A DNA stretch of 19,656 nucleotides from an uncultured Myxococcales bacterium (GTDB taxonomy: Bacteria; Myxococcota; UBA4151), in assembly GCA_964013405.1 (NCBI GenBank), contig CAXGWI010000060.1, positions 1 through 19,656 of the forward strand, read 5' to 3'. Below the pieces are notes generated by a model, which was not told where the DNA came from, made no database searches, and saw nothing but the letters and a program-made list of their open reading frames with translations. Made by a program: the position numbers and the translations under genes. Below, one piece after another: positions 1-19,656 of this stretch. The stretch's first letter is position 1; the number at the start of each line of letters is the position of its first letter.

Positions 1-787
1 TGCCGTCTTCAACACTCTTTGCGGTGAAGGAGACGTAGCCCATCCAATCCAGCAGCTCCGCCACAGCGGGGGGCTCGAGAACCACGTCATAAGCTCCGAC
101 GTCGAGGTCCACCTTATGGCTCGCCGCTTTCGCCTTGAACATGGCGTCCTCAGAGAGACTCTGCAATCCGACCTGACCTGCTTGGGTAAACTGCCCGCAG
201 CGAAACCCGGAACCGGTTTGGGTCTGGGCGATAAACTGTCCATTGCCCACAGCATGGCGCTGGTTCAGGAAGCGACCATTGGCCGCCAACAAGGTCTGGC
301 TCTGCATGCTCGTACTGACGCTGCCCGCCATCACAACAGTCGCAGCTTCCGCCTGGGCAAGGACATCGTGGATGGTTTGAACTTTCCCTCCCCCTTGGCC
401 CCAATCGACGAGGGCTGGGTCGCCGAAGGACTCGTTGATGTCGGCCTGTGGGCTTGGAAGCTGATAGGGGCACGCTGGACTGCCCCCACGGCGGGCCTGG
501 GCCTCCGCTGCCCGCAGCGCTTGGTCCCGGACCCATGTTAAGCCCTCGGGGTCGCAGCGCTCCGTGGTGGCGACACCAAGATAACCGTCGACGACGGCAC
601 GGACCGTGACCGAGCGGGAACGAACCGTGTGATCGAGGACGACCTCATTGCCGCCATAACGAAGGTGGTGGGTCTCATCACTGCCAACCTGCACCTCCAG
701 CGCCGCAGAACCGGTGGTGCTGAAAGCCTGCTCAGCCAAGGCACGGTCCGCCGTAACGAGGGCTTCTAAGCGTTCCTTTGCGCTCAT
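1..787 (-). CDS. pmbA: TldE/PmbA family protein, N-terminal part (runs off the left edge; absent from the ORF track)
   Basis: Manual translation from ATG at 787, which overlaps the tldD stop (ATGA 784-787), stays open to the window edge: MSAKERLEALVTADRALAEQ...RSVTVRAVVDGYLGVATT...KVDLDVGAYDVVLEPPAVAELLDWMGYVSF. The GxYxVVLEPxAVxxLL segment is typical of TldD/PmbA proteins. No HExxxH follows it, as expected for the non-catalytic partner, and it lies directly downstream of tldD. Confidence 0.85.
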   Translation of the reverse strand, partial: MSAKERLEALVTADRALAEQAFSTTGSAALEVQVGSDETHHLRYGGNEVVLDHTVRSRSVTVRAVVDGYLGVATTERCDPEGLTWVRDQALRAAEAQARRGGSPACPYQLPSPQADINESFGDPALVDWGQGGGKVQTIHDVLAQAEAATVVMAGSVSTSMQSQTLLAANGRFLNQRHAVGNGQFIAQTQTGSGFRCGQFTQAGQVGLQSLSEDAMFKAKAASHKVDLDVGAYDVVLEPPAVAELLDWMGYVSFTAKSVEDG

Positions 788-2235
788 GATGCGCTCCTTA
801 CCTGGACGTTACGGAAACGAGCCGGAGCCACACCGTGACCCACGTGCGCTAACTGCATCGGATCGCCCTTGCCGCAGAAATACCAGCCCCAGCTGCGCCA
901 GGCCTCGGGACCACAAATCGCATCGCAACTACCCCAGAATTCTGGGGTCCGCCCGACATAGAGTGGATCCCTGTACATGGTCCCCAACCTGCCATCCTTG
1001 ATCTCCCAAGCGACCTCACAGCCAAATTGGAAGTTGAGCCGCAACTGGTCGATCGACCACGAGCGGTTGTTGGAGAGTAGAAATCCGGACTCCGTGTCCG
1101 CAATGAGATCGGCGAGGCTACCGGCAGTCCCAGGCTCCAAGTCCACGTTAGCCATCCGGTCGATGGGGTATCCGGCCCAGCCATCACTGCGAGCAGTGCC
1201 CGCAGGTTCGTACCCGGCGCGCCCCGCACTCTGCCAGCCGCTCAGATAGCCAACAAGAACGCCGTCACGCACCAAGTCACTGCGATGGGATGGTGTCCCA
1301 TCATCGTCCCAACCAAAGGATCCGAGGGCTCCCGAGCGGGTTGGGTCGCTCACAAGGTTCACAATCTCCGAACCGTAACGTGTGCCCAGTTTATCCCGCT
1401 GGGCCCAGGACCCCCCAGCCAGACTGATCTCGTCGCCCAAGACCCGATCCAACTCCAGCGGGTGCCCTACACTCTCATGGACCTGAAGCGACAGTTGGCT
1501 GCCGTGAAGGATGATGGTGGCGGTCTGCTCAGGCATCGGTGGTGCGGCCGTCAGTAAGCCAGCCTCCACGCCCACACGGTCACAGTGACCGAGCAGGTCG
1601 AGCCCTTCCACCACTTCCCATCCGCCCTGGAGGATCTCCCCCTCGTGACTCTTGGGATAGGAACGAGACTGAGTGCGTCCATCGTCCCCACGGGCGATGG
1701 CCTGGATTCCGCCGCCGCAGCAGGTTTGCACTTGGTCAAAGGAGAGCCCGTCGGTGGCTCGCACTCGGGTCGCGTTGCGCTGAGTGACAAGCTGGCTCTC
1801 CGTCGCGATGACTCGTGACTCGGCCTGAGCCATACGCTCGTTGGCGCTCAACAACAGACCGTACTTTTCATCGAGGTCGATAGCGAAGGGATCTTTGGCG
1901 ACCGGTGTCTGCCATTGCCCGCCCTCGGTGGTGCGGGGGTACAGGGAACGAGGCTTTGCGCCTCGGGCGACTCGCTGCCGAGCGTTGTCCACTGCCCGCT
2001 CAACCAACGCATCCATCGCTCGCTCGCCGGAGACAACGCCGGCTGCAGAGCCCCAGACTCCGTCGACCACGGCGCGCACACAGTAGCCCTGCTCATCCGT
2101 CTGCTGATGGTTGTCGATTCGCTCGCCCCGGGCCGTAATCCATTCCGTACGCCGGTCCACGGAGCGTACATCACCAAAATCGAGACCCTCGCCATCGAGT
2201 CGAGACAGGGCGCGATCGAGAAGTCGGTCGGACAT
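784..2235 (-). CDS. tldD: TldD family metalloprotease
   Basis: HESVGHPLELDR zinc motif (HExxxH), GSFGWDDDG, LVRDGVLVGYL, PIDRMANVDLEPG and C-terminal CGKGDP. Start moved to ATG 2235 (MSDRLL), which has a GGAG RBS upstream; the ORF track start at 2262 is less likely. Confidence 0.93.
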   Translation of the reverse strand: MSDRLLDRALSRLDGEGLDFGDVRSVDRRTEWITARGERIDNHQQTDEQGYCVRAVVDGVWGSAAGVVSGERAMDALVERAVDNARQRVARGAKPRSLYPRTTEGGQWQTPVAKDPFAIDLDEKYGLLLSANERMAQAESRVIATESQLVTQRNATRVRATDGLSFDQVQTCCGGGIQAIARGDDGRTQSRSYPKSHEGEILQGGWEVVEGLDLLGHCDRVGVEAGLLTAAPPMPEQTATIILHGSQLSLQVHESVGHPLELDRVLGDEISLAGGSWAQRDKLGTRYGSEIVNLVSDPTRSGALGSFGWDDDGTPSHRSDLVRDGVLVGYLSGWQSAGRAGYEPAGTARSDGWAGYPIDRMANVDLEPGTAGSLADLIADTESGFLLSNNRSWSIDQLRLNFQFGCEVAWEIKDGRLGTMYRDPLYVGRTPEFWGSCDAICGPEAWRSWGWYFCGKGDPMQLAHVGHGVAPARFRNVQVRSAS

Positions 2236-2319
2236 GCTGTTTCTCCGAGCCTTCCATGGCACAGGGGCTTGCTTTGTTCATTCCTTTTCCGCCATTCAAG
2301 AGCCGCCAGGAGGCATTGC

Positions 2320-3018: not shown

Positions 3019-4056
3019 TTGAGGCGCTGGATCCGGTCAGTGGCGGTGCGTTGGCTGCTGCTTGTCCCGCTCTGCGCCGCGTGCAGCGCGGAGGATATCG
3101 AAGCCTACGACCCGAGCCACCCCAAAGACCAGCTGCTGCGGATGAACCACCTGCAGGCCATGGGCACCCACAACAGCTATCATCAACTCCCGCCGGGAGG
3201 TGCAGATACCTTTTGGGATTACGATCACCTCCCCTTGGATCAGCAATTAAACGATCAGGGGGTCCGGAAGTTTGAGTTGGATCTGTATTGGGACCGAGAA
3301 GCAGGCACCTTCGAGGTCTATCACGTCCCGGTCGTCGACCGCTGGACCGTCTGCGAGACCTTCCGTCTGTGCCTCAGCCAGATCCAAGGCTGGTCGGAGG
3401 AACATCCCGGACATCACCCCCTCTTCATTATGATTGAACCCAAGGAAAGCGATCTCGATGAAACGGCTGCTGCGTTATGGATTGATCACCTTGAGCAAAG
3501 GATCTCTGCGGTCATCCCCCGGGACCACATCATTACCCCTGATGAGGTCCAAGGCGATGCAGCAAGCCTGCGCGATGCGGTGACTGGAACCGGTTGGCCT
3601 CTGCTCGGTCAGGTTCGGGGCCGAGTCCTCTTTTGGGTCAATACCAGCGGGGTGATCCGTCGAGTCCTCGATCGGGATGGGCAGGATCTCTCCGGCCGCC
3701 TCGTGTTTGCCGAAAGCGACCTCAATACACCGGTGGGTTCCATCACCAACTACAACACGCCCACCGAAGCGAATCTTGCCGAAATCCAAGCGGCGGTGGC
3801 TCAAGGATTTATCATTCGCAGTCGTGCCGACGCGGACCCGATGGATGTCCTCGCTGGGCGGATCGAGCCACGCCGGAGTCACGCGCTCGACAGCGGTGCT
3901 CACTTGCTCAGCACAGACTTTCCCGGTGACCATCCACGAACCGACTATGTCTTTCGGATGCCTGAGGGCAGTCCGAGCCGATGCAATCCCGTCAACGGGC
4001 CGGCCGACTGCAGGCCCAACGATATTGAAGATCCAGTGCGCCTGAGCGCGCCATGA
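3019..4056 (+). CDS. Phosphoinositide-specific phospholipase C-like phosphodiesterase (bacterial Ca2+-dependent PI-PLC family), predicted lipoprotein
   Basis: GTHNSYH, GVRKFELD, VYHVP, HPGHHPLFIMIEPK, TPDEV, GWP...RGRVLF and SGAHLLSTDFP match this PLC-like TIM-barrel family. The N-terminus is basic then hydrophobic and ends in lipobox-like LCAAC. TTG start directly follows the HAD stop; the exact start is uncertain. Confidence 0.85.
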   Translation: MRRWIRSVAVRWLLLVPLCAACSAEDIEAYDPSHPKDQLLRMNHLQAMGTHNSYHQLPPGGADTFWDYDHLPLDQQLNDQGVRKFELDLYWDREAGTFEVYHVPVVDRWTVCETFRLCLSQIQGWSEEHPGHHPLFIMIEPKESDLDETAAALWIDHLEQRISAVIPRDHIITPDEVQGDAASLRDAVTGTGWPLLGQVRGRVLFWVNTSGVIRRVLDRDGQDLSGRLVFAESDLNTPVGSITNYNTPTEANLAEIQAAVAQGFIIRSRADADPMDVLAGRIEPRRSHALDSGAHLLSTDFPGDHPRTDYVFRMPEGSPSRCNPVNGPADCRPNDIEDPVRLSAP

Positions 4057-6077
4057 GCAGACCCACGCTCGCTCAAGAGCAGATCAAACGCTTAGAGCAA
4101 CTCTGCCGATGGGATGAGCCGGCGCTGATCGCCCAAGGGAATGCGCTGGCAGAGAGTCTTCTGGGCCAGGCCTGGATCGATCGATGCGCGGACGAGCTGC
4201 TGGCCCAGAGCACGCGCAACGACATGGAATCGCTGAAGCTCAACTTTCAGCTCGCTGAGGAACTACAAAGGGACGAACCCGACCATCAAAAGTGCCTCCG
4301 CATACTCCCGAAGCTACGAACAAATCCGACCCTTGCGAGACAACTTCTACTCGATTGGCCCCGCGCAGGCAGCTACACCCCTCCCAGCTATGACCTGGGC
4401 TGGCACTTGGTCAATGCCGGGCTCTACCAGCTCCAGCAACTGGGGGATCCAAGCCTCTTCGACGACCTGCTTGAGGGCATCGAAGTCTCACCGCAGGCCG
4501 ACGGCTTTGTCATCGACCCCGAGCGCTGTCTGCTGCCGGTCGCAGAGGGCTTCGAGATCCTGATTCAGCACGAAATCCGGGGCATTGTGGGCTTCGCACC
4601 GGCCTCCAGCGAACGGGCCGTCAGGCTACGCTCTGGGATGAAGCGTCTCACTATCGACGCCAGGTATGATGGCTACAAATGGGAACGAGAGTTCCCGGTC
4701 GACTGCAATCCGCTGGCGAATTTCGACAAGCTGTCGAGCTTGGAGGTTTGCCACGCTCTCCCCCTTCTCAACTGGTCGGCCCTCGACCACTGCGACCGAC
4801 TCCAAGACACCAGCTTCACAAACTGCCACCTTCCCTGGACGAAAAAACCTAACTGGAACCTTCGTGAGTTGCGTGCCGCTCTTGACGGACAAGAGCTTCT
4901 GCCGCCCTCGTGGGCACCCGATGACTACATCTGCCTTGAGACCGGCCGTCGGCTCTACATCAGCCGACGGTATGATGGCTTCGATGCCGCAGCGGAGCCC
5001 CCCGCCCCTCCTGAGCTCGGTTTTGCGACGGACAGCCTCGAAGCGAGAATGCTAAGGCGGCTCCTCTCGGGACGGCGGGCCCAACGAAGGGATGGATTGG
5101 CCTTGGCCCGGACCCATCCCGACACGAGTCGCCGGGTGATCTGGGCTGAGGTGGATCGCCTCGAAGATTGGGGGTATTTCCCACGCTTTAAAGCCCCCCA
5201 TACCCCCCTCGTGCGCAATGAGATTAACGAAGAGATTCTCGAGCTCGTTCTCGCCCGGGATGCCGAGACCTTTGCGGGATTAGAGACGTTTCGAATGGAG
5301 TGCCCTTGGCTCGAGTCCCTCGATTTCCTCCAATTCCTCCCGAACCTTCGAGCTCTGGAACTGAAATCCTGTGCCGCCTTGGAGAACGTGTCTGCTTTCG
5401 AGTTTGCCAAGAATCTGCGGCATCTCGACTTGAGTGGAACTGCGGCCCTTCGCAGTCTCGCCGGCCTGGAATCTTGCCAGGCACTGCTGAGTTGTCGCCT
5501 CACGCCCGATCAACCACTCGATGACCTCAGAGCCCTCGCTTCCCTCGATGAACTGCGGCGGCTCGCCTTCCCCTGGAACACGTTCACTGACCTCAAGGGC
5601 CTACCCCACGGCCTTCGACTGGACCGGTTCGATCTGAACGATTGCCGGTCCCTGGAGCGCCTGGCCGGAATCGAGCGGATCCAAGCCTCCGACGCCCGTC
5701 AACCGCTCCGGGTGAACCTGAGGGATTGCACGCAACTTCGCGATGTCACCGGACTGGGTGGGGAACTCACGAACGTTCACGTCAACCTGGCAAACTGCAG
5801 TTCTCTTGTGACCTTAAGCGGACTGGAGCAGGCCAAAAACCTAGAAAAGCTGCTGCTGATCTTCGTCGGCTGCGATGCCCTGGAGGACATCAGCGCACTC
5901 AACCACCTGCCAAAGCTCCGCAAGCTCCATCTCAACCTGGCCGATCTCGACCAGGCTCCAACGCTCATCGATCGCCTTACACTGGGCGAGGGGGTCAAAG
6001 TCGTCGTCGAGGAGCGCTTTAGCTTCCGCCAATACCCATTTGCTTCGTCGGGACCGATCGCCTGGGACGGTGACTAG
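4053..6077 (+). CDS. Leucine-rich repeat protein with an unrecognised N-terminal region
   Basis: The C-terminal ~260 aa hold about 9-10 LRRs (LPNLRALELKSCAALENV, KNLRHLDLSGTAALRSL, LRVNLRDCTQLRDV, VHVNLANCSSLVTL). ATGA overlap with the PLC stop. No signal peptide visible. Confidence 0.8.
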   Translation: MSRPTLAQEQIKRLEQLCRWDEPALIAQGNALAESLLGQAWIDRCADELLAQSTRNDMESLKLNFQLAEELQRDEPDHQKCLRILPKLRTNPTLARQLLLDWPRAGSYTPPSYDLGWHLVNAGLYQLQQLGDPSLFDDLLEGIEVSPQADGFVIDPERCLLPVAEGFEILIQHEIRGIVGFAPASSERAVRLRSGMKRLTIDARYDGYKWEREFPVDCNPLANFDKLSSLEVCHALPLLNWSALDHCDRLQDTSFTNCHLPWTKKPNWNLRELRAALDGQELLPPSWAPDDYICLETGRRLYISRRYDGFDAAAEPPAPPELGFATDSLEARMLRRLLSGRRAQRRDGLALARTHPDTSRRVIWAEVDRLEDWGYFPRFKAPHTPLVRNEINEEILELVLARDAETFAGLETFRMECPWLESLDFLQFLPNLRALELKSCAALENVSAFEFAKNLRHLDLSGTAALRSLAGLESCQALLSCRLTPDQPLDDLRALASLDELRRLAFPWNTFTDLKGLPHGLRLDRFDLNDCRSLERLAGIERIQASDARQPLRVNLRDCTQLRDVTGLGGELTNVHVNLANCSSLVTLSGLEQAKNLEKLLLIFVGCDALEDISALNHLPKLRKLHLNLADLDQAPTLIDRLTLGEGVKVVVEERFSFRQYPFASSGPIAWDGD

Positions 6078-7587: not shown

Positions 7588-8085
7588 TTATCGAGTCCGA
7601 ACCCGACCTCGCACGGGGCCCTGCAATTCCAGGTTCTCAAAAGCCTCATCGGCCACCGCGCCGCCCTCGGCCACCAACTGATGACCATCACCGGCAAAGA
7701 CAGCTGGCCCGGACAGGCTGACCATCCCCGGCCCAGAGTAATAATCGAGCCGGGGTGTTGTGAACCGTCGGCCATCGGGCATGACACCCTTCACCTTACC
7801 CCACATCTGTAGGTTCCGGCCCGACAGCTCGGCCCGCTCACTGCGGAGGACAACGCGCCGGCGCATCAACTCCACGGTCACCCCCGTCAGGGACTGACGC
7901 TCGCCATCCCGGTCCCCGGAGAAGCTCACGGCCCGCAGCCGGGCAAAGACCTTGCCGTCGCGGGGGTTGTGGAGCTCGGTCTTGAGGGCATTGCCCACAA
8001 CCTCTGGCTCGTTGCCATCCACAGCCACGGGAACCGGAGCCTCCGGCGCACAGGCCACAAGTCCTAAGCAGAGCAGGCCTCTCAT
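7588..8085 (-). CDS. LptC/OstA-like beta-jellyroll protein, predicted lipoprotein
   Basis: Short signal with lipobox LVAC, followed by short beta-strands with LptC-like motifs ([37 protein letters not shown]). ATGA overlap with the POT stop (8082-8085). Confidence 0.6.
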
Positions 8086-10079
8086 GCAGCCTCAGCCTCT
8101 CCCTCGTCCTGAATATAGGTACGCTCCTTATAGAAGTACGCATAGGGGACAAAGAGCAAGGCTGTGAGGAACATCATGAGGGCGAAGAACAGGTAATACT
8201 CGGTGCCGGAGATCTTCGCGGTTTGCGTGGGCTGGTCGTCGGCGACCAGTTTCACGTCGCTACCTTCAGGTTGCTCGATCAGCTTCCATTGGTAGCTGAG
8301 CTTGTCGCCGGCCAGATCATAGGAGCCACTGGCATCCAACTCGAAGAACTCGTCGAGCGTCGCCACGCCCGTTCCAGCCACTGCGATGGGCTTGAGATCT
8401 TCGGCGGTCGCCACCACATCGAGGGTTGCGCTGGCTTCTTTGGCCTCCGCCCCCTCGCCCACGGTGAAGGTCATCGCCAAGCGGTAGGCCCCCGGCTTGT
8501 CGGTGACCAACTCCGCATAGCGCCGATCGGAATGGCTCAAGCTGGCTTGACTGCCGGCCGGCTTCAAGCTGAGCTTCCAAGCGTAGCTGCGGCCGCCTTT
8601 GGCGTCGCCTTCATCCACTTGGGCAAAGACATTCACTTGCCCCCCCGGCTCAACGGCCCGAGCATGCCCGAGGTCGACGGTGGGTGGCTTGGCCTTCGCC
8701 TCTTTCGCTTCTTTCTTGCGGGCTTTGGCTTCCCGCTCTGCTTTTGCCTTCTTCTGGGATTCGCTCAGCGGCTTCACCACCTGGATGATCTGCTGAGTAT
8801 ACACCGGAGCCTTGCCATCCTCCACCTTCAACTCCACCACATAGCGGCCAGTTTTCGTCGGCGTAAATCCGGGCTGAGGATTCTGGATGAAGTGATTCAC
8901 TGCGCCCACAAAGACATTGCCCAGGCTGACACTCATCAGGAAGCAAGCCATGATCACCGACTTCATCTTCTTCGGCGCCTGAGTGTAGCTGAACTCCAAG
9001 CACGTGATGCTCACAAACACCTCGGCCGCCGTGATGATCACGTAGGCGAAGAGTTGCCAGCCGATGTTCACCACCTCGCCGGCGGCGATCTGGGTCTCGA
9101 TCCATGCAGGGATCAAAAAGGCGGGAACGGTGAGAAAGAGACCGATCCCGATTTTACGGATTGGGGTCAGCTTGAAGACCCGGTCGATGGCCGGATAAAT
9201 CCAGAATCCAAAGATCGGGATGAACACCATGATCATGATGGGGTTCACGGCTTGGATTTGGGAACTCAGCCATTCAAAGCCCAAGAAGCGCCGGTCCATC
9301 TGTTCCGCCTGCAGCACCCAGGCGGAGCCCGTCTGATCAAACAAAGCCCAGAACATAGCCACGAAGGCATAGATGACGAAGAGCTTCCCTAACGAGAAGA
9401 TCCCTTCCCTCGAAAAGACCTCCCGCACGAAGGCCATGCCGCCCGGCGGAATGTGGATGAACTTATGGCGACCCATCCAAAACACGACGGTGGCGACGCC
9501 CATCAAGAGGCCAGGGATCCCAAAGGCGAGGTGGGGCCCGTAGTTCTTTAAGAGCCAAGGGGTGAGCAGGGTCGAGGCAAAGGCACCGAGATTGATGGAG
9601 AAGTAGAACCAGCCAAAAACCTTCTCAAGCAGATGGGAATTGCTCTGACCAAACTGGTCGCCCACGTGGGCGCTGACACAGGGCTTAATCCCGCCACTGC
9701 CGATGGCGATGAGCGTGAGGCCCCACCACAAACCCATTCGAGTTTCGTCCACAGCCAGGGCGGCGTGCCCGGCACAATAGACAATGCTCAGCCAAAGGAT
9801 CGTTCGGTACTTGCCCAGAAACCAATCCGAAATCAGCGCGCCAAGAATCGGGAAGAAGTAAACAGCAGAAGTGAAGCTATGGTACCAGACCATGGCCTCT
9901 TCCCGGCTCATGGTGTCGTTGACCCCTGAACTGTCCACCAGGTACTTGGTCATGAAGACGACCAAGATGCCCTTCATGCCATAAAAACTAAAGCGTTCCG
10001 CTGCCTCGTTGCTGACGATGTAGGGAATGCCACCGGGCATCTTGTCTGTGGCGACGGGAGCGTTGCGATACGCGTTCAT
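8082..10079 (-). CDS. POT/PTR family proton-coupled oligopeptide transporter with a large inserted PKD/Ig-like region
   Basis: Signature [13 protein letters not shown] (ExxERFxYYG), [42 protein letters not shown] and [15 protein letters not shown] ~225-aa soluble insert precedes the last TM helix. Confidence 0.95.
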
Positions 10080-10223: not shown

Positions 10224-13200
10224 CTACCAGTCTTCAACGGACCAAAGGTAAGCAAAATATGTCGTGTTAGGATTCCACGTCCCATTCAAAACACCATGGC
10301 GACTGTAACCCCAGCACCGGAATTCACCCCGATCAAGGAGACGGCCGCAATTGGCGTACTCGGCAGACCAGACCCGATCGTAGGCCACGCCCTGGGGCTG
10401 CACGGGGGCTGGCACAGGCTGGCTGTTACCCGGTAATTCTTCCCCTCGTCCGAGGCGGCCCGATTCCTCGTAGCCCCAACAAAGGATGTCATGGGAACCA
10501 TCCACTGCGCAGGCATGACCTCTTCCCACCGAGAGATCCGTCACCCCGGACAGCCCCTCCACCAGACCCCAAGGAACAGTGCTTCCTTCCTCTACCGGGC
10601 GTCCGGACTGTCCGTATTGGTTTCTGCCCGAACAAAACACCGTGCCTGCCTCAGTACGACCGCAAAGAAAGTCCTCGCCGATGCCAAAGTCGGCCAGATC
10701 ATCCAAAAGCGACAGGTGAATGGGGTCCGCCGCTGCGCCCCAAAGCGTTCGGGAGGGAAAAGGCGTCTCTTCAACTTCCCCATCCAACGCACCGGAACTG
10801 GGCATTCCTTTTAAGTAGCCAAAGCAGCGTGTGCTTTCATCTTCGAGGCGCACACAACCTCTGCCATGCCAGATTTTGAATGAGACCGCTCGCAACTCAC
10901 CTTCACCGGACCCAACGCCTCTGAGCCGCATGGCTGGCGCAGAATCTGAGCTATGAAGTCCGGCCGCCTTATAGCCCCAGCACCAAACCTCTCCAGACTC
11001 GGTTCGCACACAATTACTCCACCGGCCTGATTGCAACTCCACGATCCCATCCGGCAAATCCAGAACCTGTGCGGGGAAACGAGCATGAACCGTACGATTC
11101 GGCCCCAACTGACGGTAGTGATTGTCCCCCCAGCACCAAACAACCCCCGCTTCAGTCAGAGCGCAGGTATGTTCGGAACCCACGGCCACCTGCCGAACCG
11201 GTCCGAGATGATCCAGGCGAGTCCGCAGAGACTTTCTAAAGGTCCCGTCACACCGGCCGGGATAATTACCATGACCTAACTGACATTGGTCGTTGTAACC
11301 CCAGCACGACAACACACCCCCTTGATCGATCACGCAACCATGGTTCTTACCGAGTTGCAGTTCGGCATACCGATTTCGACAGGTATTGGGGCAGCGGTCC
11401 TCATCAACATCATTGCCGTCGTCACAGTCTTCACCAGGATCGAGAACACCATCACCACAGACTGCTCCGCACTCTCCACTCCAACCATTCACATCCAATA
11501 AGGGGCCTGGATCAAAACGCTCTGGGGCCTCGACAACACCATCACCACAACCTGGTCGACGTTGACTTAATCGGGTGACAAAAAGCTCTTGGTGATTCCT
11601 CCAGAAAGTCGCCGCCGAATCCAAATGATCAGGCTGGGCCATGACATGGTCACCAAAGGGTGTGGCCAAATGCCCACCTTTTCCGGAGCCACACCAATAG
11701 TCGTCAAGACATGCCCCAAGACTGCTGTCATCTAGATTCACCAAAGAGAGCGCATAGGTTGGCCGTCGATGCTGAACCAGCATCTGCCGACCATTGGGGC
11801 TCACCCGTAAGCGATCCACCTCCTCGATGGACCATGCCCGAAGATAGTCTCCGGAGAGGGTGATTTGCTGCAACGGCTCTCGCGAGCACGCAACCAGCAA
11901 ACTCGCCTCGGCAGCCGCTGTCGCTGGCACAAAACGAAGGCTGGTGATCTCTGCATTGGGGTTGCGCTTACAGGGCCGGAGATCATGCATCAAAGCACCA
12001 TCCTGGCCCTCATAGATTCGAACCTTCGATGTGTGTGAAGACACTGCGACCCAACGGCCGTCGGGACTCAGATCCACAAGTCCCCGCCCGTCGTCGTGGG
12101 GCCGAGGTTGGCTCCACAAGACTTCCCCCGTACTCAATCGCAGCAAGATGACTCTGTCGTCCGAATCGACATTGTCCACCCGCAATCCTTCAGCCAGCGC
12201 GACGACCAGATCAAGCTCGGGCTCACCGGTCAGAGATTTGACCGCACTCACACCCAAGGTATTCCGGCTTGAGACCTCCCAAGCCGTCACCGGCACATCC
12301 GGCCGCAGGTCGACAGCCCTCAGATTATCAGCCCGATACCGGTTTCTAATGCCCACCAGAATGGAACCATCAGCAGACCAAGCAAAATGAGTTCGACTAT
12401 GGAATTCAAAGTCTCTGACCACAGCCCCGCGATCCACCACATCCGATTGGGTCAGATCCGCAACGAGGAGATGGTCGTCACCCAAGAGCAGCATCTGTCG
12501 CCCGTCACTCCTCAAAACGGCCGCGTTGCTGCGCAGCGATGGGCGTTCCCAGTTGTAGACTTCGGGCTCGCGCTCGGAGAGGGGAGAATAGGTATGAAGA
12601 TAAGCCTCTCTCCGATGGCTTTCTGTACCGAAGGTCATAATTGCGGGGGATCGACCGCCCCACGAGTAATCAGCGACATAAAAAGCCTGGCTGCCATCGG
12701 GATGAAACATAATGTCCAGAGCCGGGTGACGACTCACGGCTCCATTGGGCTCCCCGTCAAGTCTGTAGACCCCTTTATGGAACTGTGTCTCCTTCGTCAG
12801 GCTGCCAAGGGGGTCAGCCAACGGGGTGTAGCCATGATCGTTCAGCGCACCCCATCCTGCTGCCAGGCCTTCAAGGCGCCGGCCGATCGTCGCCTGTGGA
12901 TCTCCGGCGAACGGGTTGCCCTGAAATTCGATGGTGCTCTGGTACGAGACCCCACGTGATGGGTTTTCACAACCGTAGCCGTTGTAGGCGTAACAGAGAC
13001 TAATTCGCCGCGGATTTTCGCTGAGCGTGATCCCGTGGGGTGCTCGCCGCCGTGACTCCTCGTTCAAGTAAAGGGCCACAGGCGCCTCAAAATAAGGTGC
13101 TTCTCGGGTCCCTTTAAAGGCCAACAGGCGAGGGACGGGGTTGGCTGCACTGGTGTTCGTCGGCACCAAAACATCGGGCGTGCCGTCATCATCGAAGTCG

Positions 13201-16200
13201 CGCACAATGCACGCTGTGCCCGGACGGGTGTAGCCCGAATAGGGCCATTCATTGGTCGCGCAATTATCGGAACCATCGTCCCGCATCTGACAGTGCCAGG
13301 TTCGCAGGGTCTGCAGATCCGGTCGATAAGGCAGTCGACCCGCTTCCGTGGGATCCACAAGGGTGATAAATCCTCCTCGATCATCAACACCGCAAACGAC
13401 AATCTCCAGGTCCTCGTCATCGTCCCACTGGACCCGATGCCCACCCTTGATCTTCAAATTCCCATCCGGTCGATCAGGAGGGTTTGGAATCACAACCCGA
13501 TCACCACGCCAGTAATGAGTGGGCTCCACCCAAAAGTGGAAGATGTTCCCTAAGGTCCCGTCCTCCTGCATCAAACGCAGTGCGAAGTGTCCACCATCAA
13601 GCGTATGATCTGCATCAACATGGACCTCGTGAACTGGTGTTTGTCCTGAAAAACGCTCCCTCAATGGGAGATCACGAACGAGGGTATAGGACCAACCATG
13701 AGGCCCTGCTCGTTCGGCCCTCAACAACTGCGCACGAGTGCAATGGGCGTAAGGGTTTCCTCCGTCCTCTTCCGCCAATCCCTCGTCGTAACAAGGCCCT
13801 TCATCCACCGCCTCCCCGTTGGCCCACTCATTGGGGCGCCGAACATTCTCGGTGTAGAGGCGAAGGGTATGTCTCGATGACTGTTGTTCGATCCGCCTCG
13901 GTTCAAGATTGAGGATGTTCGCCGCATCGGCATGCCCCACGGCCAGTTCCAACCGCGGTGGATTCTCCCAGGGGGTTTCCCCCATCCAATCAGGGGTCAC
14001 TTCACAAGACCCCACACTCCGCCCACCGGCAACGCGCCAGCGTGCTCTGCCCTCGCCGTCGGTGGTCTGGACCCGGGTCTCGATCCAACAATTAATACCG
14101 TTCAAGTAGACCCTTGTACCGACCCGAGGCTGCCCTTCTCGGTCCGTAACGTTCAGCGTAATCTCTACACTATTTTCATCACCAAAGGTTTGCGGGCTCA
14201 TGACATAGGAGGTCAAACTGGCCCCCTCATGACCGGACCAGGTCCCACCCACTGGTGAACCAGCCACTTGTCCGACCTTCACAGTGCGTGTGAGTCCGGT
14301 GGCACCATGGCTCAATCGCCACGAGCACAAGGCCACTCGGGGCCCGGCTTGAAGGGGTTCGCCGTCTTCGGCACCAAACCGGACCTCACCCTCTGCGTCG
14401 GTTTGCAGGGCCCCCTCCCCGAACTGTCCACAATCAGCGGGCTCCCCGTCGATCAACTGGGCGCTGAGTCCCAAACCGGGCATGCCGCCGCCCTGTGCAT
14501 TTTCAATGCGAACTACCAACGGATCGACCGGCGCGGTGCCTACGGCCAACTCAAAGGGAATCGTTCCATCCCGGTCATCGAAGAGTCGCCGATCTCGATG
14601 ATAAACTTCAATGGCTTCTGGAACGCCTGCCCCCACCTCGAAGCGCACCTGCGTGGTCCCCTCGAAAGGCGGTTGCTCACTGGCTCCCCAAGCCTTCAAC
14701 TCAAGGGTCCCTGCCCGAGTCAAACCGGTGACCCAACTGCGAAAGACACCCAAGGCGTCGGTCCGACCATGGGTGCGGGCCAGATAGATTCCTTCGGGCA
14801 GGGCTGCCTCCGGATCATCCCCCACGCTTGTCCAATGAACGGGAATGCCGGGCACGCCATTACCTGCCTCATCCAAAACAGCGACTTCCAGAGGGCCACC
14901 GCTGCCACCAACAACGGCCCGAATGGGCGAGCCAGAGACCACCTCCATCCGGCGAGGCTCCCCGGGAATGATGTGCACGAGGAGCAATTTTTGGACCGGA
15001 CGATCCACTGCTTTAACCAAGAGCTGAATGGGCCTCCCTAAGGTGGCCATCCCTACGGCCCGTAAGCGCAGGTGAACCTGACCGGAACGACCGGTATTGA
15101 GTACCTGACCATGGAGGAAGCCATGACCGTCCTCGAAGGCCAACCACTCCTGGTGCCCCATACTCATCACCCGAAAACGAACATCCATTTCCGGCATCCG
15201 AGCACCGTTGGCATCGATGCCAGCCACCACCAAACCAAAGGGCCTCTGCCCCGGAGTGACCACTTCCGTCACCCGTGCCTCCCCATCCCCATAGACCACC
15301 AACTGGTCCACATCACTGGGAGTCACCAACACTTCGCGTTGGGCCGACAGGCGCAACTCGGGAATCGAAGCAATCAAATAGGAATCGACCACGTTGCGAT
15401 TCGGACAAATCGCCTGGGCATAGACGATGCCATCGACGCTACTACGCATCTCCGTCGGCGCAACTCCCTCTAGTTGAGTCGATGAAAACTCGACTTGGAC
15501 CCCAGCGATTCCGCCCCCACCGGCACCCACCACACGAAAGCGAGCCAAATCTGTGGGGCCTCCCGGCTGGCAGAGCAACACATCGGCACCGGCATCAAGC
15601 GCGTCGCCGGCACCATCCACGGGAAGAATTGCCACTGGTTGGCTGTCCCGTGTGTCTCCATCAAGCCGGAACTCGCCATCGCCGGCCAACATCTCTGGCT
15701 GGACCAAACCAGTCCAACGCAGTGCGAGACGCCAGGCCCCTGCCTTCGATCCCGGCAACAAACACAAGCCTTCAGCCTCCCCGTCGAGTTGCCCGGCCGA
15801 TGGGAGATCCACAGCGCCACAGTCATCTCCGGTGAGCGCCCGGAGTTGGAGTGTTTCTCCTTCAGAAATGGCGGCGGCACCGGCATCAGCGCCGGAGCCG
15901 ATGTCCGAGACCGTACCGATATCCGGAGTCACCGCGGCGTCGGCAGGCCCCTGACCGCTGTCGACAGCAGCATCGCCGGGCCGAGGCTCCCCATCCACAT
16001 CCAGACCTACCGAACCGATATCGGCGCCACCATCGGCATCCATGGGGGCAGCCCCATCCATCGCTGCGTCGGCTGCAATGCCCAGGTCTCCAACGAAACC
16101 CGCGTCCATCGGCACGCCGCCATCCGAGGGTGGGGCCGGAGGGGCAGGAGGCGGCGCGTCCGCCTCGACAGGTAGAATCTCCCAAGCCACCGGCACATCG

Positions 16201-16814
16201 TCGATCTCATTACCCCGGTCATCTCGAATGAGAAAGCGCAAGCGCATGGGACGTGGATCGTCCCGGTTCAGCCCTGGCAAGGTCCACGACCTCAAGGGAT
16301 CGGGGAACCCAGCCTTCCAGGCCTTGCTACCGACTTCATCGATGACAAAATCGATGTTGAGCGCAGCACGATCCGCCTGCAAATCAATGCTATGAACCTC
16401 ATCGACATCCGGCCGGCTGACAGCCCGCAGCCGTAGCTTTAGAACCCCCTGCGTGCCCGTCGAGAGCAAGCGGATCTCGCACTCCCCATCGCTGCGGTCG
16501 GTTCGACAACTCGAACCAAAAGGGAAGCTTGCGAGGGACTCCCAGCTTTCAGACTCCACCACCATCGCATCGATGAGCTGGTTACCCAGGGGCTGACTGG
16601 TTTGGTCGAGCAGCTTGACCCGAAGCGCTAAACGCCCACCGACGGTCACCGGTTGGTCAAGCCCGAGGGCCGTTCTCTCGTCGCCCTCACCGTAGACGAA
16701 GACTTGCAATAACTCGATGCGGTTCGGCTGCGGGCTGTCGCTGTTCTGCGGCAAACTGGGCAGGGCCGGCGTGCACGCCGCAAGCATCCCACAAACGAAG
16801 AAGCGGTGAATCAT
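10224..16814 (-). CDS. Giant (~2200 aa) multidomain predicted lipoprotein: Ig-like repeats, D/A/G-rich linker, FG-GAP motif, beta-propeller, Myxococcus Cys-rich repeats, RCC1 repeats
   Basis: ATG 16814 gives MIHRFFVCGMLAAC (lipobox LAAC); the ORF track start is 16874. Invasin/Big-like motifs (VAVLDEAGNGVPGIPVHW, TDGEGRARW), DFDDDGTPDVLV, WD40-like blades (DLSPDGRWVAV, VSPNGRQMLV), CGDGVLDPGEDCDDGN...RCPNTC and RCC1 repeats (VAVGSEHTCALTEAGVVWCWGDNHYRQLG). Confidence 0.85.
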   Translation of the reverse strand: MIHRFFVCGMLAACTPALPSLPQNSDSPQPNRIELLQVFVYGEGDERTALGLDQPVTVGGRLALRVKLLDQTSQPLGNQLIDAMVVESESWESLASFPFGSSCRTDRSDGECEIRLLSTGTQGVLKLRLRAVSRPDVDEVHSIDLQADRAALNIDFVIDEVGSKAWKAGFPDPLRSWTLPGLNRDDPRPMRLRFLIRDDRGNEIDDVPVAWEILPVEADAPPPAPPAPPSDGGVPMDAGFVGDLGIAADAAMDGAAPMDADGGADIGSVGLDVDGEPRPGDAAVDSGQGPADAAVTPDIGTVSDIGSGADAGAAAISEGETLQLRALTGDDCGAVDLPSAGQLDGEAEGLCLLPGSKAGAWRLALRWTGLVQPEMLAGDGEFRLDGDTRDSQPVAILPVDGAGDALDAGADVLLCQPGGPTDLARFRVVGAGGGGIAGVQVEFSSTQLEGVAPTEMRSSVDGIVYAQAICPNRNVVDSYLIASIPELRLSAQREVLVTPSDVDQLVVYGDGEARVTEVVTPGQRPFGLVVAGIDANGARMPEMDVRFRVMSMGHQEWLAFEDGHGFLHGQVLNTGRSGQVHLRLRAVGMATLGRPIQLLVKAVDRPVQKLLLVHIIPGEPRRMEVVSGSPIRAVVGGSGGPLEVAVLDEAGNGVPGIPVHWTSVGDDPEAALPEGIYLARTHGRTDALGVFRSWVTGLTRAGTLELKAWGASEQPPFEGTTQVRFEVGAGVPEAIEVYHRDRRLFDDRDGTIPFELAVGTAPVDPLVVRIENAQGGGMPGLGLSAQLIDGEPADCGQFGEGALQTDAEGEVRFGAEDGEPLQAGPRVALCSWRLSHGATGLTRTVKVGQVAGSPVGGTWSGHEGASLTSYVMSPQTFGDENSVEITLNVTDREGQPRVGTRVYLNGINCWIETRVQTTDGEGRARWRVAGGRSVGSCEVTPDWMGETPWENPPRLELAVGHADAANILNLEPRRIEQQSSRHTLRLYTENVRRPNEWANGEAVDEGPCYDEGLAEEDGGNPYAHCTRAQLLRAERAGPHGWSYTLVRDLPLRERFSGQTPVHEVHVDADHTLDGGHFALRLMQEDGTLGNIFHFWVEPTHYWRGDRVVIPNPPDRPDGNLKIKGGHRVQWDDDEDLEIVVCGVDDRGGFITLVDPTEAGRLPYRPDLQTLRTWHCQMRDDGSDNCATNEWPYSGYTRPGTACIVRDFDDDGTPDVLVPTNTSAANPVPRLLAFKGTREAPYFEAPVALYLNEESRRRAPHGITLSENPRRISLCYAYNGYGCENPSRGVSYQSTIEFQGNPFAGDPQATIGRRLEGLAAGWGALNDHGYTPLADPLGSLTKETQFHKGVYRLDGEPNGAVSRHPALDIMFHPDGSQAFYVADYSWGGRSPAIMTFGTESHRREAYLHTYSPLSEREPEVYNWERPSLRSNAAVLRSDGRQMLLLGDDHLLVADLTQSDVVDRGAVVRDFEFHSRTHFAWSADGSILVGIRNRYRADNLRAVDLRPDVPVTAWEVSSRNTLGVSAVKSLTGEPELDLVVALAEGLRVDNVDSDDRVILLRLSTGEVLWSQPRPHDDGRGLVDLSPDGRWVAVSSHTSKVRIYEGQDGALMHDLRPCKRNPNAEITSLRFVPATAAAEASLLVACSREPLQQITLSGDYLRAWSIEEVDRLRVSPNGRQMLVQHRRPTYALSLVNLDDSSLGACLDDYWCGSGKGGHLATPFGDHVMAQPDHLDSAATFWRNHQELFVTRLSQRRPGCGDGVVEAPERFDPGPLLDVNGWSGECGAVCGDGVLDPGEDCDDGNDVDEDRCPNTCRNRYAELQLGKNHGCVIDQGGVLSCWGYNDQCQLGHGNYPGRCDGTFRKSLRTRLDHLGPVRQVAVGSEHTCALTEAGVVWCWGDNHYRQLGPNRTVHARFPAQVLDLPDGIVELQSGRWSNCVRTESGEVWCWGYKAAGLHSSDSAPAMRLRGVGSGEGELRAVSFKIWHGRGCVRLEDESTRCFGYLKGMPSSGALDGEVEETPFPSRTLWGAAADPIHLSLLDDLADFGIGEDFLCGRTEAGTVFCSGRNQYGQSGRPVEEGSTVPWGLVEGLSGVTDLSVGRGHACAVDGSHDILCWGYEESGRLGRGEELPGNSQPVPAPVQPQGVAYDRVWSAEYANCGRLLDRGEFRCWGYSRHGVLNGTWNPNTTYFAYLWSVEDW
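10227..11370 (-). repeat. RCC1/BLIP-II repeat region (about 7 blades) in the giant protein
   Basis: Recurrent G..H.C.....G.v.CWG.N..GQLG units: LGKNHGCVIDQGGVLSCWGYN, VGSEHTC...WCWGDN, SGRWSNC...WCWGY, WHGRGC...RCFGY, IGEDFLC...FCSGRN, VGRGHAC...LCWGY, AEYANC...RCWGY. Confidence 0.85.
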
Positions 16815-16883
16815 CAAAGACTTGGTAGCCAGTGGGGACGAGGCCGCCAAGCCATTAGAAGACAAGGCAGGCAATCTTTCGCC

Positions 16884-18692
16884 CTAGACGTCGGTCTTCA
16901 GGACACTCAAAAACGCCGACTGGGGTATCTCCACCTTACCAAACTGCCGCATCCGTTTCTTCCCCTTCTTCTGCTTTTCAAGAAGCTTGCGCTTGCGGCT
17001 GATGTCACCGCCGTAACACTTCGAAGTCACGTCCTTGCGCAGGGCTGGAATCGTTTCACGGGCGATAATGCGACTGCCAATGCTGGCCTGGATCGGAATC
17101 TTGAACTGGGCTCTTGGGATTAACTCCCGCAGCTTTTTGCACAAAGCCCGGCCCCGGAAATAGGCATTATCCTTGTGCAGAATCACCGCCAACGCGTCCA
17201 CGCGCTCGCTGTTGATCAGGACATCGAGGCGAACCAGGTCGCTCTCTTCATAACCGGACAGCTCATAATCCATGGAGGCATAGCCCCGGGTGATACTCTT
17301 CAAGTGGTCGAAGAAATCGAAGACGACCTCTGCCAAGGGCAGGCGGTATTGAAGATGCACCCGATCCGAGGTGAGATATTGCAAATCCAGTTGGACCCCT
17401 CGGCGTTCCTGACACAGCTTCATGACGGAGCCGACGAACTCTTCGGGCACGTGGATGTCCGCCCGAATCATGGGCTCAAGGACCGCCTCCACCTCGTTGA
17501 GCTGGGGAAAGTCCGCCGGGTTCGAGAGCTCGCTCTCATTGCCCTCGAGATCGCGGCGGCGATACACCACCGTCGGTGCCGTGGTGAGCAAGTCCAGATT
17601 GAACTCCCGCTCCAAGCGCTCTTGAACGATCTCCATGTGCAAGAGGCCAAGAAAGCCACAACGAAAGCCAAGGCCCAAGGCAGCACTGGACTCGGGCTCC
17701 CAGACCAAGCTGGCGTCATTGAGCACCAGTTTATCGAGGGCATCTCGTAAGTCCGAGTAATCAGCCGCATCCACCGGGAAGATCCCGGCGAAAACCATCG
17801 GCTTGACCTCTTCAAAGCCGGGCACGACTTCAGTCTCGCCCTTCGAAGCCGTCAGGCAAAGGGTGTCGCCGACCTTGGCATCATGGAGATCCTTGATCCC
17901 CGCAACCACATAGCCAATCTCGCCAGTCTCAAGGTGCTGGAGTGGCTCGGCATGGGGATTGTAGGCCCCCAACTCCAGCACTTGGTGTCTGGCTTGCGTG
18001 TGCATCAGGGTGACATCATCACCAACCTTCAGCGAACCGTCCACCACCCGAACCATGAGGACAACGCCCTTGTAGGGGTCGTACCAGCTGTCGAAAATCA
18101 GGGCTCTGAAGGGGTCGGCGGGTGCGCCCTGCGGGCCAGGGAGCAGGGCCACCAGGCGCTCAAGTAAGGCTTCTACGCCGAGCCCTGTCTTTGCGGACAC
18201 ATGGAGGATCCCCTCCGTGTCGAGGCCCACGACCTCCTCGATCTCCTGGGCGACTCGGTCCGGCTCGGCTGCCGGCAGGTCGATTTTATTGAGAACAGGA
18301 ACGATCTCCAAGTCGTTCGCCACGGCCAAATAGACATTGGCCAGGGTCTGGGCCTCGACCCCTTGACTCGCGTCGACCACGAGCAGCGCACCATCGCAAG
18401 CCGCCAGACTGCGACTCACTTCGTAGCCAAAGTCCACATGCCCAGGCGTATCCACGAGGTTCAGCATATACTCCAGACCGTCCTCGGCCCGGTGGACCAG
18501 GCGAACAGCTTGAGCTTTAATCGTGATGCCCCGCTCCCGCTCGATGTCCATCTTATCAAGAAACTGTTCCCGCTCTTCCCGTTGGGTCAACGCACCGGTC
18601 GCTGCCAACAATCGGTCAGCCAAGGTCGACTTGCCGTGATCGATGTGGGCGATGATGCAGAAATTGCGAATGCGTTCCCGGGGAATACTCAA
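16884..18692 (-). CDS. lepA: Translation elongation factor 4 (LepA)
   Basis: [67 protein letters not shown] and [32 protein letters not shown] start overlaps the upstream TGA (TTGA). Confidence 0.99.
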
Positions 18693-18859
18693 GGGGCCGC
18701 CTCCTCGTGGGACTTTGCCTCGCCATAGCGCCGAAGCACCTCGTCGATGCCCTCCCGGATGTAAGCTGACACCGGCACACGAGTCCGGGCTTTCAGCCGC
18801 TTCAAAGCAGCCACCTGCTCGGCCTCCAGATAGATGGTGGTACAGACCTTCCGACCCAC
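18689..18859 (-). CDS. Small ribbon-helix-helix DNA-binding protein (56 aa)
   Basis: GTG at 18859 with GGAG 7 nt upstream. (M)[44 protein letters not shown] has the RHH pattern: alternating beta-strand TTIYL, helix, turn, then SxxIRxxI helix. Confidence 0.85.
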
Positions 18860-18878
18860 AAACGAACTCCCGGCCCCG

Positions 18879-18907
18879 CTCTTAGGTGGCACGGCGGCGC
18901 AAGGCAA
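18879..18907 (-). promoter_or_regulatory. Weak sigma70-like promoter candidate for RHH-lepA
   Basis: TTGCCT-N17-TAAGAG on the minus strand in the 55-bp gap upstream of the RHH gene. Matches are only 4/6 and 3/6. Confidence 0.25.
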
Positions 18908-18914
18908 GGAAGGC

Positions 18915-19656
18915 CTACTCCCGGCAGGCCTCCTCATGACGAATGCTTACCCCCTGACTGTGGGCTACACAGCCGTTGCTGTAGGTTCGCCCGTCACAAC
19001 CGCAGACCGGCTGCACGACCCCAACACAGGCCTCAGGTCTGGCCTGGCAAGCTCCAGCAGCGTCGCAGGCTCCGGGCGCCTTGGCGCAGAAATCCCGCGG
19101 CCCGCATTGTTCATTGCTCTGACAGGCCCCCGGGGGTGGCTCGGCGCACTCGCCCTGATAGTCTAGCTGCACCCCAGCCTGAAGCCGACGGCAGTCGTTC
19201 GAGTACGTCTCGCCATCACAGCCACAGACGGGCTCGAACTCCCGACCACACTGCCGGGGGACTTGGACGCATTGTCCCAGGCCATCAGCCATCTGGCAGG
19301 TCCCTTGAGGGTGCTCACAAAAGTCGTTCTCACCGGGACATGGCCGGCCGGCGAAGCCACCACACGCTCCTTCAGGTGGGTCGTCTTCACAGGCTCCCAG
19401 GTGATCCAGTTGGGCCCGGGCTCGCAGTCGTTCACAATCGTTGCCGTAGGTGGCCCCGTCGCAACCGCAGACGGGCAGCCACTGATCATCGCAAGCCTCT
19501 GGAACCGCCCGGCACATACCCATGCCATCGGCAACCTGACATTGCCCCTCCGGTTGATCGCAATAATTGTCCCGGTCCTGACACATGAAGCCGGCAATCC
19601 TGCCACAGCGTTCATCACCGGGAGGGCCGCCAGCGTCAGCCCCAGGCAGGCCTGCA
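18915..19656 (-). CDS. Kazal-type domain repeat protein, C-terminal part (5' end outside the window)
   Basis: Three PVCGCDGxTYxNxC units, each preceded by a Cys-rich module. The frame stays open beyond the ORF-track start at 19586 to the window edge (AGLPGADAGGPPGDERCGRIAGFMC). Confidence 0.88.
   Translation of the reverse strand, partial: AGLPGADAGGPPGDERCGRIAGFMCQDRDNYCDQPEGQCQVADGMGMCRAVPEACDDQWLPVCGCDGATYGNDCERLRARAQLDHLGACEDDPPEGACGGFAGRPCPGENDFCEHPQGTCQMADGLGQCVQVPRQCGREFEPVCGCDGETYSNDCRRLQAGVQLDYQGECAEPPPGACQSNEQCGPRDFCAKAPGACDAAGACQARPEACVGVVQPVCGCDGRTYSNGCVAHSQGVSIRHEEACRE

Follow-up and report, generated by a model that had tools for sequence, protein, structure and literature searches.

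Solved bacterial peptide transporters of the POT family contain the helices HA and HB and no soluble domain, and the accessible portions of two papers (PMC4597091, PMC8565842) state a large outer domain for the mammalian members only. The window analysed here, a 19,656-nucleotide stretch of DNA from an uncultured Myxococcales bacterium, contains a POT gene in which about 225 residues are inserted ahead of the last transmembrane helix, and no description of a bacterial POT with such an ectodomain was found in searches of a largely open-access literature. The locus raises the questions of what this insert consists of, how it came to occupy its loop, and what it may contribute to the transporter.

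The transporter core and its surroundings

The gene and the elements of its core are listed below. For TM1–TM11, helices are taken from the model, equivalence to PepTSo from pairwise alignment and invariance from the alignment of homologues.

8082..10079, reverse strand: predicted POT/PTR2 peptide:H+ symporter gene (P0001), 665 residues, 12 predicted TM helices plus ectodomain
8889..10028, reverse strand: TM1–TM11, residues 18–397, with E25/E28/R29, H67, K132, D248, E353 and N388
9411..9464, reverse strand: short TM6–TM7 linker without HA/HB, residues 206–223; residues 213 to 224 are aligned with PepTSo 208 to 292
9072..9074, reverse strand: residue 336 in the TM9–TM10 loop, candidate docking point, hydrophobic when the PKD ectodomain is present
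8133..8207, reverse strand: TM12, residues 625–649, from the model helix and the PepTSo alignment

The identification as a POT transporter, made originally from the sequence, was borne out. The protein scores 274 bits with PF00854 (PTR2; cut-off 27) and 166 bits with TIGR00924 (cut-off 130.2), and among solved structures it is closest in sequence to PepTSo (347 bits), PepTXc (292) and PepT2 (248). A full-length AlphaFold model built from 80 sequences (pLDDT 89.5, pTM 0.84) contains 12 long helices, and its Foldseek match to 4uvm at E 5e-23 predicts a 12-helix MFS fold. PepTSo from Shewanella (PDB 2xut/4uvm) and PepTXc (6ei3), the top sequence matches and also Foldseek ranks 1 and 2, share with the window protein the ExxER motif (E25/E28/R29) and the positions of the TM2 His, Asp, Lys, Glu and Asn. 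The residues E25, E28, R29, H67, K132, D248, E353 and N388 do not vary in any covering row of an alignment of 80 homologues, and the PepTSo residues aligned to these eight are important for proton coupling according to the accessible part of PMC5740623. K132 and E353 are the equivalents of Lys127 and Glu419, and a mammalian-like gate set is present in the TM2 His (H67), the Asp316 equivalent (D248) and the Asn454 equivalent (N388). The gene likely encodes a proton-coupled di/tripeptide importer, for which family knowledge would predict transport via a mammalian-like gate.

PepTSo and PepTXc have 14 helices including HA/HB and a short TM11–TM12 loop, whereas the window protein has 12 predicted helices and the large ectodomain. 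The helices HA and HB were not found between TM6 and TM7 by any of three measures, namely the gap in the PepTSo alignment, the helix model, and the distance from ExxER to EFxY, which is 334–346 in 83 proteins with the same kind of insert (type A below) against 409–457 in most PepTSo-like loci. In this respect the protein resembles mammalian PepT1 and PepT2 (SLC15A1/A2), described in the accessible text of PMC8565842 and PMC4597091 as having 12 TM helices, no HA/HB and an outer domain of ~200 residues made of two Ig folds on the C-terminal bundle. The model superimposes on PepT2 (9bis) with a TMt of 0.74 and an rmsd of 2.5, and the score with TIGR00926 is 335 bits, below the cut-off of 821.6.

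The open reading frame is intact, with no stop or frameshift within 8082–10079 on the reverse strand. A contig from another public run (X2) aligns over 8126–9009 with 53 substitutions and no gaps and spans both insert junctions; together with the many homologues, this establishes that the insert is real and rules out an assembly artefact as its source. In a marine metagenome run (X1), two short contigs match with zero differences, and coverage of the gene in RNA run X16 is limited to 9292–9732; four of the 19 listed runs were compared with the window. A relative that is 90% identical over residues 330–665 carries the source label Myxococcota.

A 165-residue ORF at 7588–8085 (reverse) with a lipoprotein-like start overlaps the transporter stop by 4 bases; it matched nothing in Pfam and NCBIfam scans, and we presume a likeness to an LptC-type β-jellyroll. 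Directly upstream of the transporter, 10224–16874 (reverse) encodes a likely surface protein of 2216 residues with Big_1, β-propeller, myxobacterial Cys-rich and RCC1-like repeats. A PI-PLC-C1 family phospholipase (345 residues) followed by a 674-residue LRR protein, with a 4-base overlap, occupies 3019–6077 (forward). Two adjoining ORFs at 1–2262 (reverse) presumably form a TldD/PmbA peptidase pair, and the region 16884–19586 (reverse) includes an ORF that we take to be a LepA/EF-4-like GTPase and a Cys-rich protein with Kazal repeats.

Composition of the insert and its probable split domain

The insert comprises residues ~399–621 (window ~8885–8217). A count on the AlphaFold model placed it between the 11th (H370-397) and 12th (H625-649) of the 12 long helices, and residues 618–655 align weakly to the last PepTSo helix, so that the TM11–TM12 location proposed originally stands. 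Lys+Arg content is biased, at 16.6 for the N-terminal side and 7.2 for the side of the insert. This bias and homology put the insert outside the cytoplasm, likely on the periplasmic side, and a cytoplasmic insert was rejected on these grounds. The four peptides by which the insert had first been described were found in their expected order, and correspond to the following parts.

8769..8885, reverse strand: part 1, second half of a PKD/K319L repeat, residues 399–437, with D421 as predicted distal calcium ligand
8688..8768, reverse strand: part 2, variable linker, residues 438–464, helical in this lineage only (helix 440–459 in the model)
8409..8687, reverse strand: part 3, complete PKD-type β-sandwich without calcium motif, residues 465–557
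8220..8408, reverse strand: part 4, first half of a PKD/K319L repeat, preceded by the junction of fixed length, together residues 558–620

The description of part 2 as a K/E/A-rich helical linker holds for the window protein and fails as a family trait, since it spans 12–41 residues among 80 homologues, in most of which it is short and rich in P/K/E. The junction that precedes part 4, on the other hand, has 7 residues in all 80 aligned rows.

The insert searched as it stands scores 34.3 bits with PKD_4 and 32.7 bits with the K319L-like profile (cut-off 27), part 4 covering positions 11–55 of the 84 in the latter; against the sequences of solved structures the only matches are at E 0.8–3.5. AlphaFold models of the insert alone, built from 88 sequences, reach a pLDDT of 96.8 and a pTM of 0.83 (five models, 96.4–96.8), and both half-domains are at pLDDT 92–96 in the full-length model. 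PKD domains lead the fold searches with the insert, and the PepT1/2 ectodomain is not among the top rows listed, which leaves room for kinship with it. The middle domain can be superimposed on 2yhg (Sde0182) with Z 11.4 and rmsd 2.4 over 96 residues, on the PKD of AAVR/KIAA0319 with Z 10.7 and rmsd 2.6 over 91, and on the PKD of collagenase ColH with Z 9.9 and rmsd 2.3 over 85. Structure prediction and fold search thus agreed with the original prediction as regards the middle domain, which has the PKD fold, but the structural aligners matched that domain only and did not extend to the proposed split one.

The circular permutation itself was recovered with two profiles. On a profile of the middle domain, part 4 occupies positions 1–59 and part 1 positions 60–90 (hhalign probability 97.7% each), and single sequences match that profile at E<0.01 in 67 of 80 homologues for part 4 and 75 of 80 for part 1, against 0/80 for shuffled pieces. 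An independent profile built from the 1455 repeats found in 145 array proteins other than transporters places part 1 at 57–87 (80/80) and part 4 at 2–53 (79/80; medians). The two parts therefore tile one repeat without overlap, and in swapped order. When 120 homologous POTs were surveyed, the order second half, whole domain, first half was found in 115 by a strict cut; in four of the other five all three pieces are present but narrowly miss the cut, and in the fifth no first half was scored. The 120 were the best matches listed to an insert-bearing query, so that this figure describes the spread of the arrangement and not its frequency.

Whether the halves close on each other bears on a further prediction, that they fold into one domain. 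In the PKD domain of collagenase ColH, calcium is bound by Asn685, Asp713, Asp715 and Asp754 (PMC4356367, accessible text). By a weak alignment, in which residue 561 is placed via a conserved Pro, these ligands map to residues 561, 588 and 590 in part 4 and to 421 in part 1. The equivalent positions are occupied in 80 homologues by N (77/80), D (80/80), N/D (75/80) and D (80/80), respectively; part 4 of the window protein carries D561, D588, A590 and D592. In array repeats, profile position 76 is coupled to positions 27, 29 and 31. Across the transporter family, D, N/D and D are retained at the latter three in part 4, and D at 76 in part 1 (all 80), and the middle domain has lost both sides of the motif (G 92%, A/Y, V 81%). 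That the motif is kept across parts 1 and 4 and lost from the middle domain supports the pairing of the halves, and a putative calcium site to which both contribute would probably lock the split domain. In the window protein the predicted ligand 590 is Ala, and its site may therefore be weaker; the coupled Asp408 is Thr.

Pair scores derived from the repeats favour part 4 with part 1 over swapped pairings in 53–59 of 80 sequences and fail to do so in 21–27, and they do not distinguish closure in one chain from closure between two. Aligners bound to chain order cannot display a split domain, and the pairing is something we infer. On these grounds the two ends of the insert probably complete one PKD domain within one chain, and the models likely represent a two-domain PKD cap with one domain divided between the ends of the insert.

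Relatives, insert types and history

A search with residues 1–400 returned many proteins of ~455 residues that are 71–78% identical, have an IQNxDG[ST]SKL-like loop and carry no insert. Core identity of insert-less relatives to the query is 73–78%; another insert-bearing protein has insert-less relatives of up to 90% core identity. Classification by pattern was possible for 234 of 245 proteins (11 with a missing motif or end were dropped, and L052 was moved to type C by hand), and gave 130 without insert, 89 with the PKD insert (type A), 9 of type C and 6 of type B. None of the 234 has a loop between 16 and 185 residues long. A genome scan in which 8 of 64 parts of the collection were read, the best 80 loci kept and the types read by eye yielded 7 loci of type A, 1 incomplete type B, 9 of type C and 63 insert-less. 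The source labels of type A proteins include Myxococcota, Verrucomicrobiota, Planctomycetota and Pseudomonadota, labels that may be wrong for assembled genomes. In one type A locus (L013:5977-8208) a long, repetitive linker rich in A/E/P/T extends the loop to 307 residues.

Type B consists of a different, Cys-bearing Ig-like repeat that lies out of register in the same loop, its end pieces mapping to positions 43–68 and 2–38 of the repeat profile with one Cys each. Four members were found later than the first six, one of the four without a scored first piece, and three carry two whole repeats. The members are P0316, P0326, P0329, P0338-P0340, P0356-P0359 and L008:4362-5641; their halves enclose either a single whole repeat or two, and the repeat also occurs in the non-transporter proteins P0360, P0366, P0375 and P0378. 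Types A and B are not detectable homologues (hhalign probability 3%); cross-searches gave two weak matches (13.2 and 6.8 bits) in one direction and no match in the reverse, and the two types may share a very old common ancestry. Type C is an insert of ~190 residues, again in this loop; four of five tested show a weak resemblance to T2SSG (pseudopilin GspG), below the Pfam cut-off. It is found in Verrucomicrobiota, Planctomycetota and, by eye, in three genomes of the window's own family (loci L036, L046, L049-L052, L054, L075, L077, L085-L088). In the ESM Atlas, two clusters (77 and 54 members) combine PTR2 with a K319L-like PKD domain, so that automatic annotation does pick up this architecture. 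A further cluster, of 62 PTR2 proteins (699 residues, commonest in Bacteroidota), has Big_9 in 19% of its members and possibly represents a further Ig-bearing POT.

The core tree was computed without the loop from 78 rows chosen from 119 non-redundant of 232, and rooted on distant insert-less relatives. Insert-bearing and insert-less proteins are interleaved in it, and type A requires about 13 changes (12–14), at least 9 of them forced by supported branches. A single core clade of type A is ruled out (AU p 1e-10, for a grouping defined by the insert in a test run after the first tree was known). Trees of insert and core for 48 type A proteins agree for the most part, although 22 of 45 splits are identical, and 1 of 21 supported insert splits conflicts, which disfavours repeated free transfer of the insert among distant cores. 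The history is best read as one gain followed by repeated loss. The loop motif [DE]G[ST] is present in 72 of 74 near insert-less proteins and 39 of 56 distant ones, and since separate deletions should not keep rebuilding it, recombination that replaces capped by insert-less alleles appears the likelier route of loss. Pairs of capped and uncapped proteins differ more in the C-terminal half (0.067 against 0.033–0.038 in other pairs). Gene conversion between capped and uncapped paralogues was rejected, as a single match was found in each of 10 genomes of unstated completeness and likewise in the window's own genome. The GC3 of the insert (0.74) compared with that of the core (0.77) gives no sign of recent capture.

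PKD/K319L-like repeats (PF22352, PF18911; Sde0182, AAVR/KIAA0319, ColH) occur whole and in order, in long arrays in large proteins, whereas the window insert has one repeat cut, its order reversed, a calcium motif shared by both ends, and a location inside a transporter loop. The insert would derive from a segment of a tandem PKD array that was cut at the same place of two repeats and was taken up, out of register, by an ancestral loop that was short. In PepT1 and PepT2 the ectodomain lies between TM9 and TM10 and consists of two tandem Ig folds; the different loop, the PKD type and the split repeat of the bacterial insert agree with the independent acquisition suggested at the outset.

A possible role for the cap

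We consider it reasonably probable that the protein is a peptide importer whose outer, split-domain PKD cap serves for docking, is dispensable and takes no part in the transport pathway. In such an arrangement the cut ends would adjoin in the split domain and rejoin the membrane there, the calcium site from both halves would lock that domain, and the middle domain would bridge its native ends. On this geometric argument two repeats are the minimum, consistent with the lack of loops of intermediate length noted above. The cap would rest on the TM9–TM10 loop, which has 6 residues, and move with the C-terminal bundle. Residue 336 in this loop is hydrophobic in 84 of 87 type A proteins and 18 of 127 insert-less ones, and 4.6 of 5 independent pairs agree (sign test p 0.06, for a column picked after the fact). 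By analogy with trypsin binding to PepT1/2, the likeliest use of the cap would be to hold a periplasmic partner, either a peptidase or a peptide-delivering protein, near the entry. These proposals weaken in the order closure of the halves, calcium locking, TM9–TM10 docking and partner binding.

The cap is probably dispensable for basic transport. According to PMC4597091, trypsin binds to the ectodomain of the mammalian transporters, which still transport without appreciable loss once it is removed, and a preprint on horse PepT1 (10.1101/2022.03.01.482558) reports that its deletion impairs transport, so that dispensability is disputed even in mammals. Docking of a partner as the selected role of the cap is put forward tentatively, by the same analogy. 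No neighbour family is common to more than three of the seven type A loci and none is shared with the window; hence no partner is suggested, and a conserved operon partner was not found at these seven loci.

It is unlikely that the insert is a nearly neutral passenger, a fold captured once, harmless, kept only by its need to fold and lost via insert-less alleles. The many changes on the core tree would suit such a history, as would the absence of conserved neighbours and the patchy spread, with 1 of 301 sampled genomes of the phylum (at most eight candidates scored per genome) matched by the insert-bearing query, and that its own. The most conserved positions of the insert are moreover ordinary PKD core residues. 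However, the insert was kept although its identity fell to about 30%, the middle domain has its own conserved G491/D492/G495/R520, residue 336 co-varies with the insert, and three different inserts occur at one site.

It seems improbable that the cap modulates gating, either by leaning across the entry or through contact with the N-terminal bundle, and thereby adjusts opening or the range of substrates, perhaps depending on calcium. The insert follows TM11, which bears the gate residue N388; position 178 near the TM5–TM6 loop is the second most insert-linked column (0.71), and in the accessible text of the preprint the horse PepT1 ectodomain contacts TM1 and aids transport. Against this, insert-less forms retain the same gate residues, the strongest insert-linked site is in the C-terminal bundle, and the human structures, in the accessible text of PMC8565842, are without contact of the ectodomain to the N-terminal bundle. 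Least probable of all is a domain-swapped dimer in which part 4 would be completed by part 1 from a second transporter and the insert would serve as an oligomerisation clasp: linkers of 12–13 residues could hardly span two colinear domains, so that closure in one chain needs a folded-back arrangement, and sequence coupling does not tell one chain from two, but in the single-chain models confidence is high along the entire insert, also in the linker.

Returning to the docking surface, a wider and rather doubtful proposal is that the TM11–TM12 loop acts as a plug-in socket in the 12-helix POT clade, with at least three insert origins, two of them by out-of-register capture of an Ig array (split domains locked by calcium and by a disulfide, respectively), with capped and uncapped alleles swapped by recombination in the flanking helices and each cap having its own periplasmic partner. 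If this were true, bacteria would have reached the PepT1/2 design several times.

The structure of the insert-bearing POT is well supported, and its function is proposed by analogy. A 12-helix bacterial clade joins both mammalian traits, the 12 helices and the two-Ig outer domain, the latter at another loop. Repeat arrays captured out of register, probably twice at one site, make the family a clear natural example of domain insertion, and the TM11–TM12 loop stands out as a tolerant position on the outer side where an MFS transporter could be given extra mass or sensors. What the PepT1/2 ectodomain does is disputed, the two views being a dispensable dock for trypsin and an aid to transport, and bacterial capped and uncapped cores that are up to 90% alike make this kind of question testable in a simple system.
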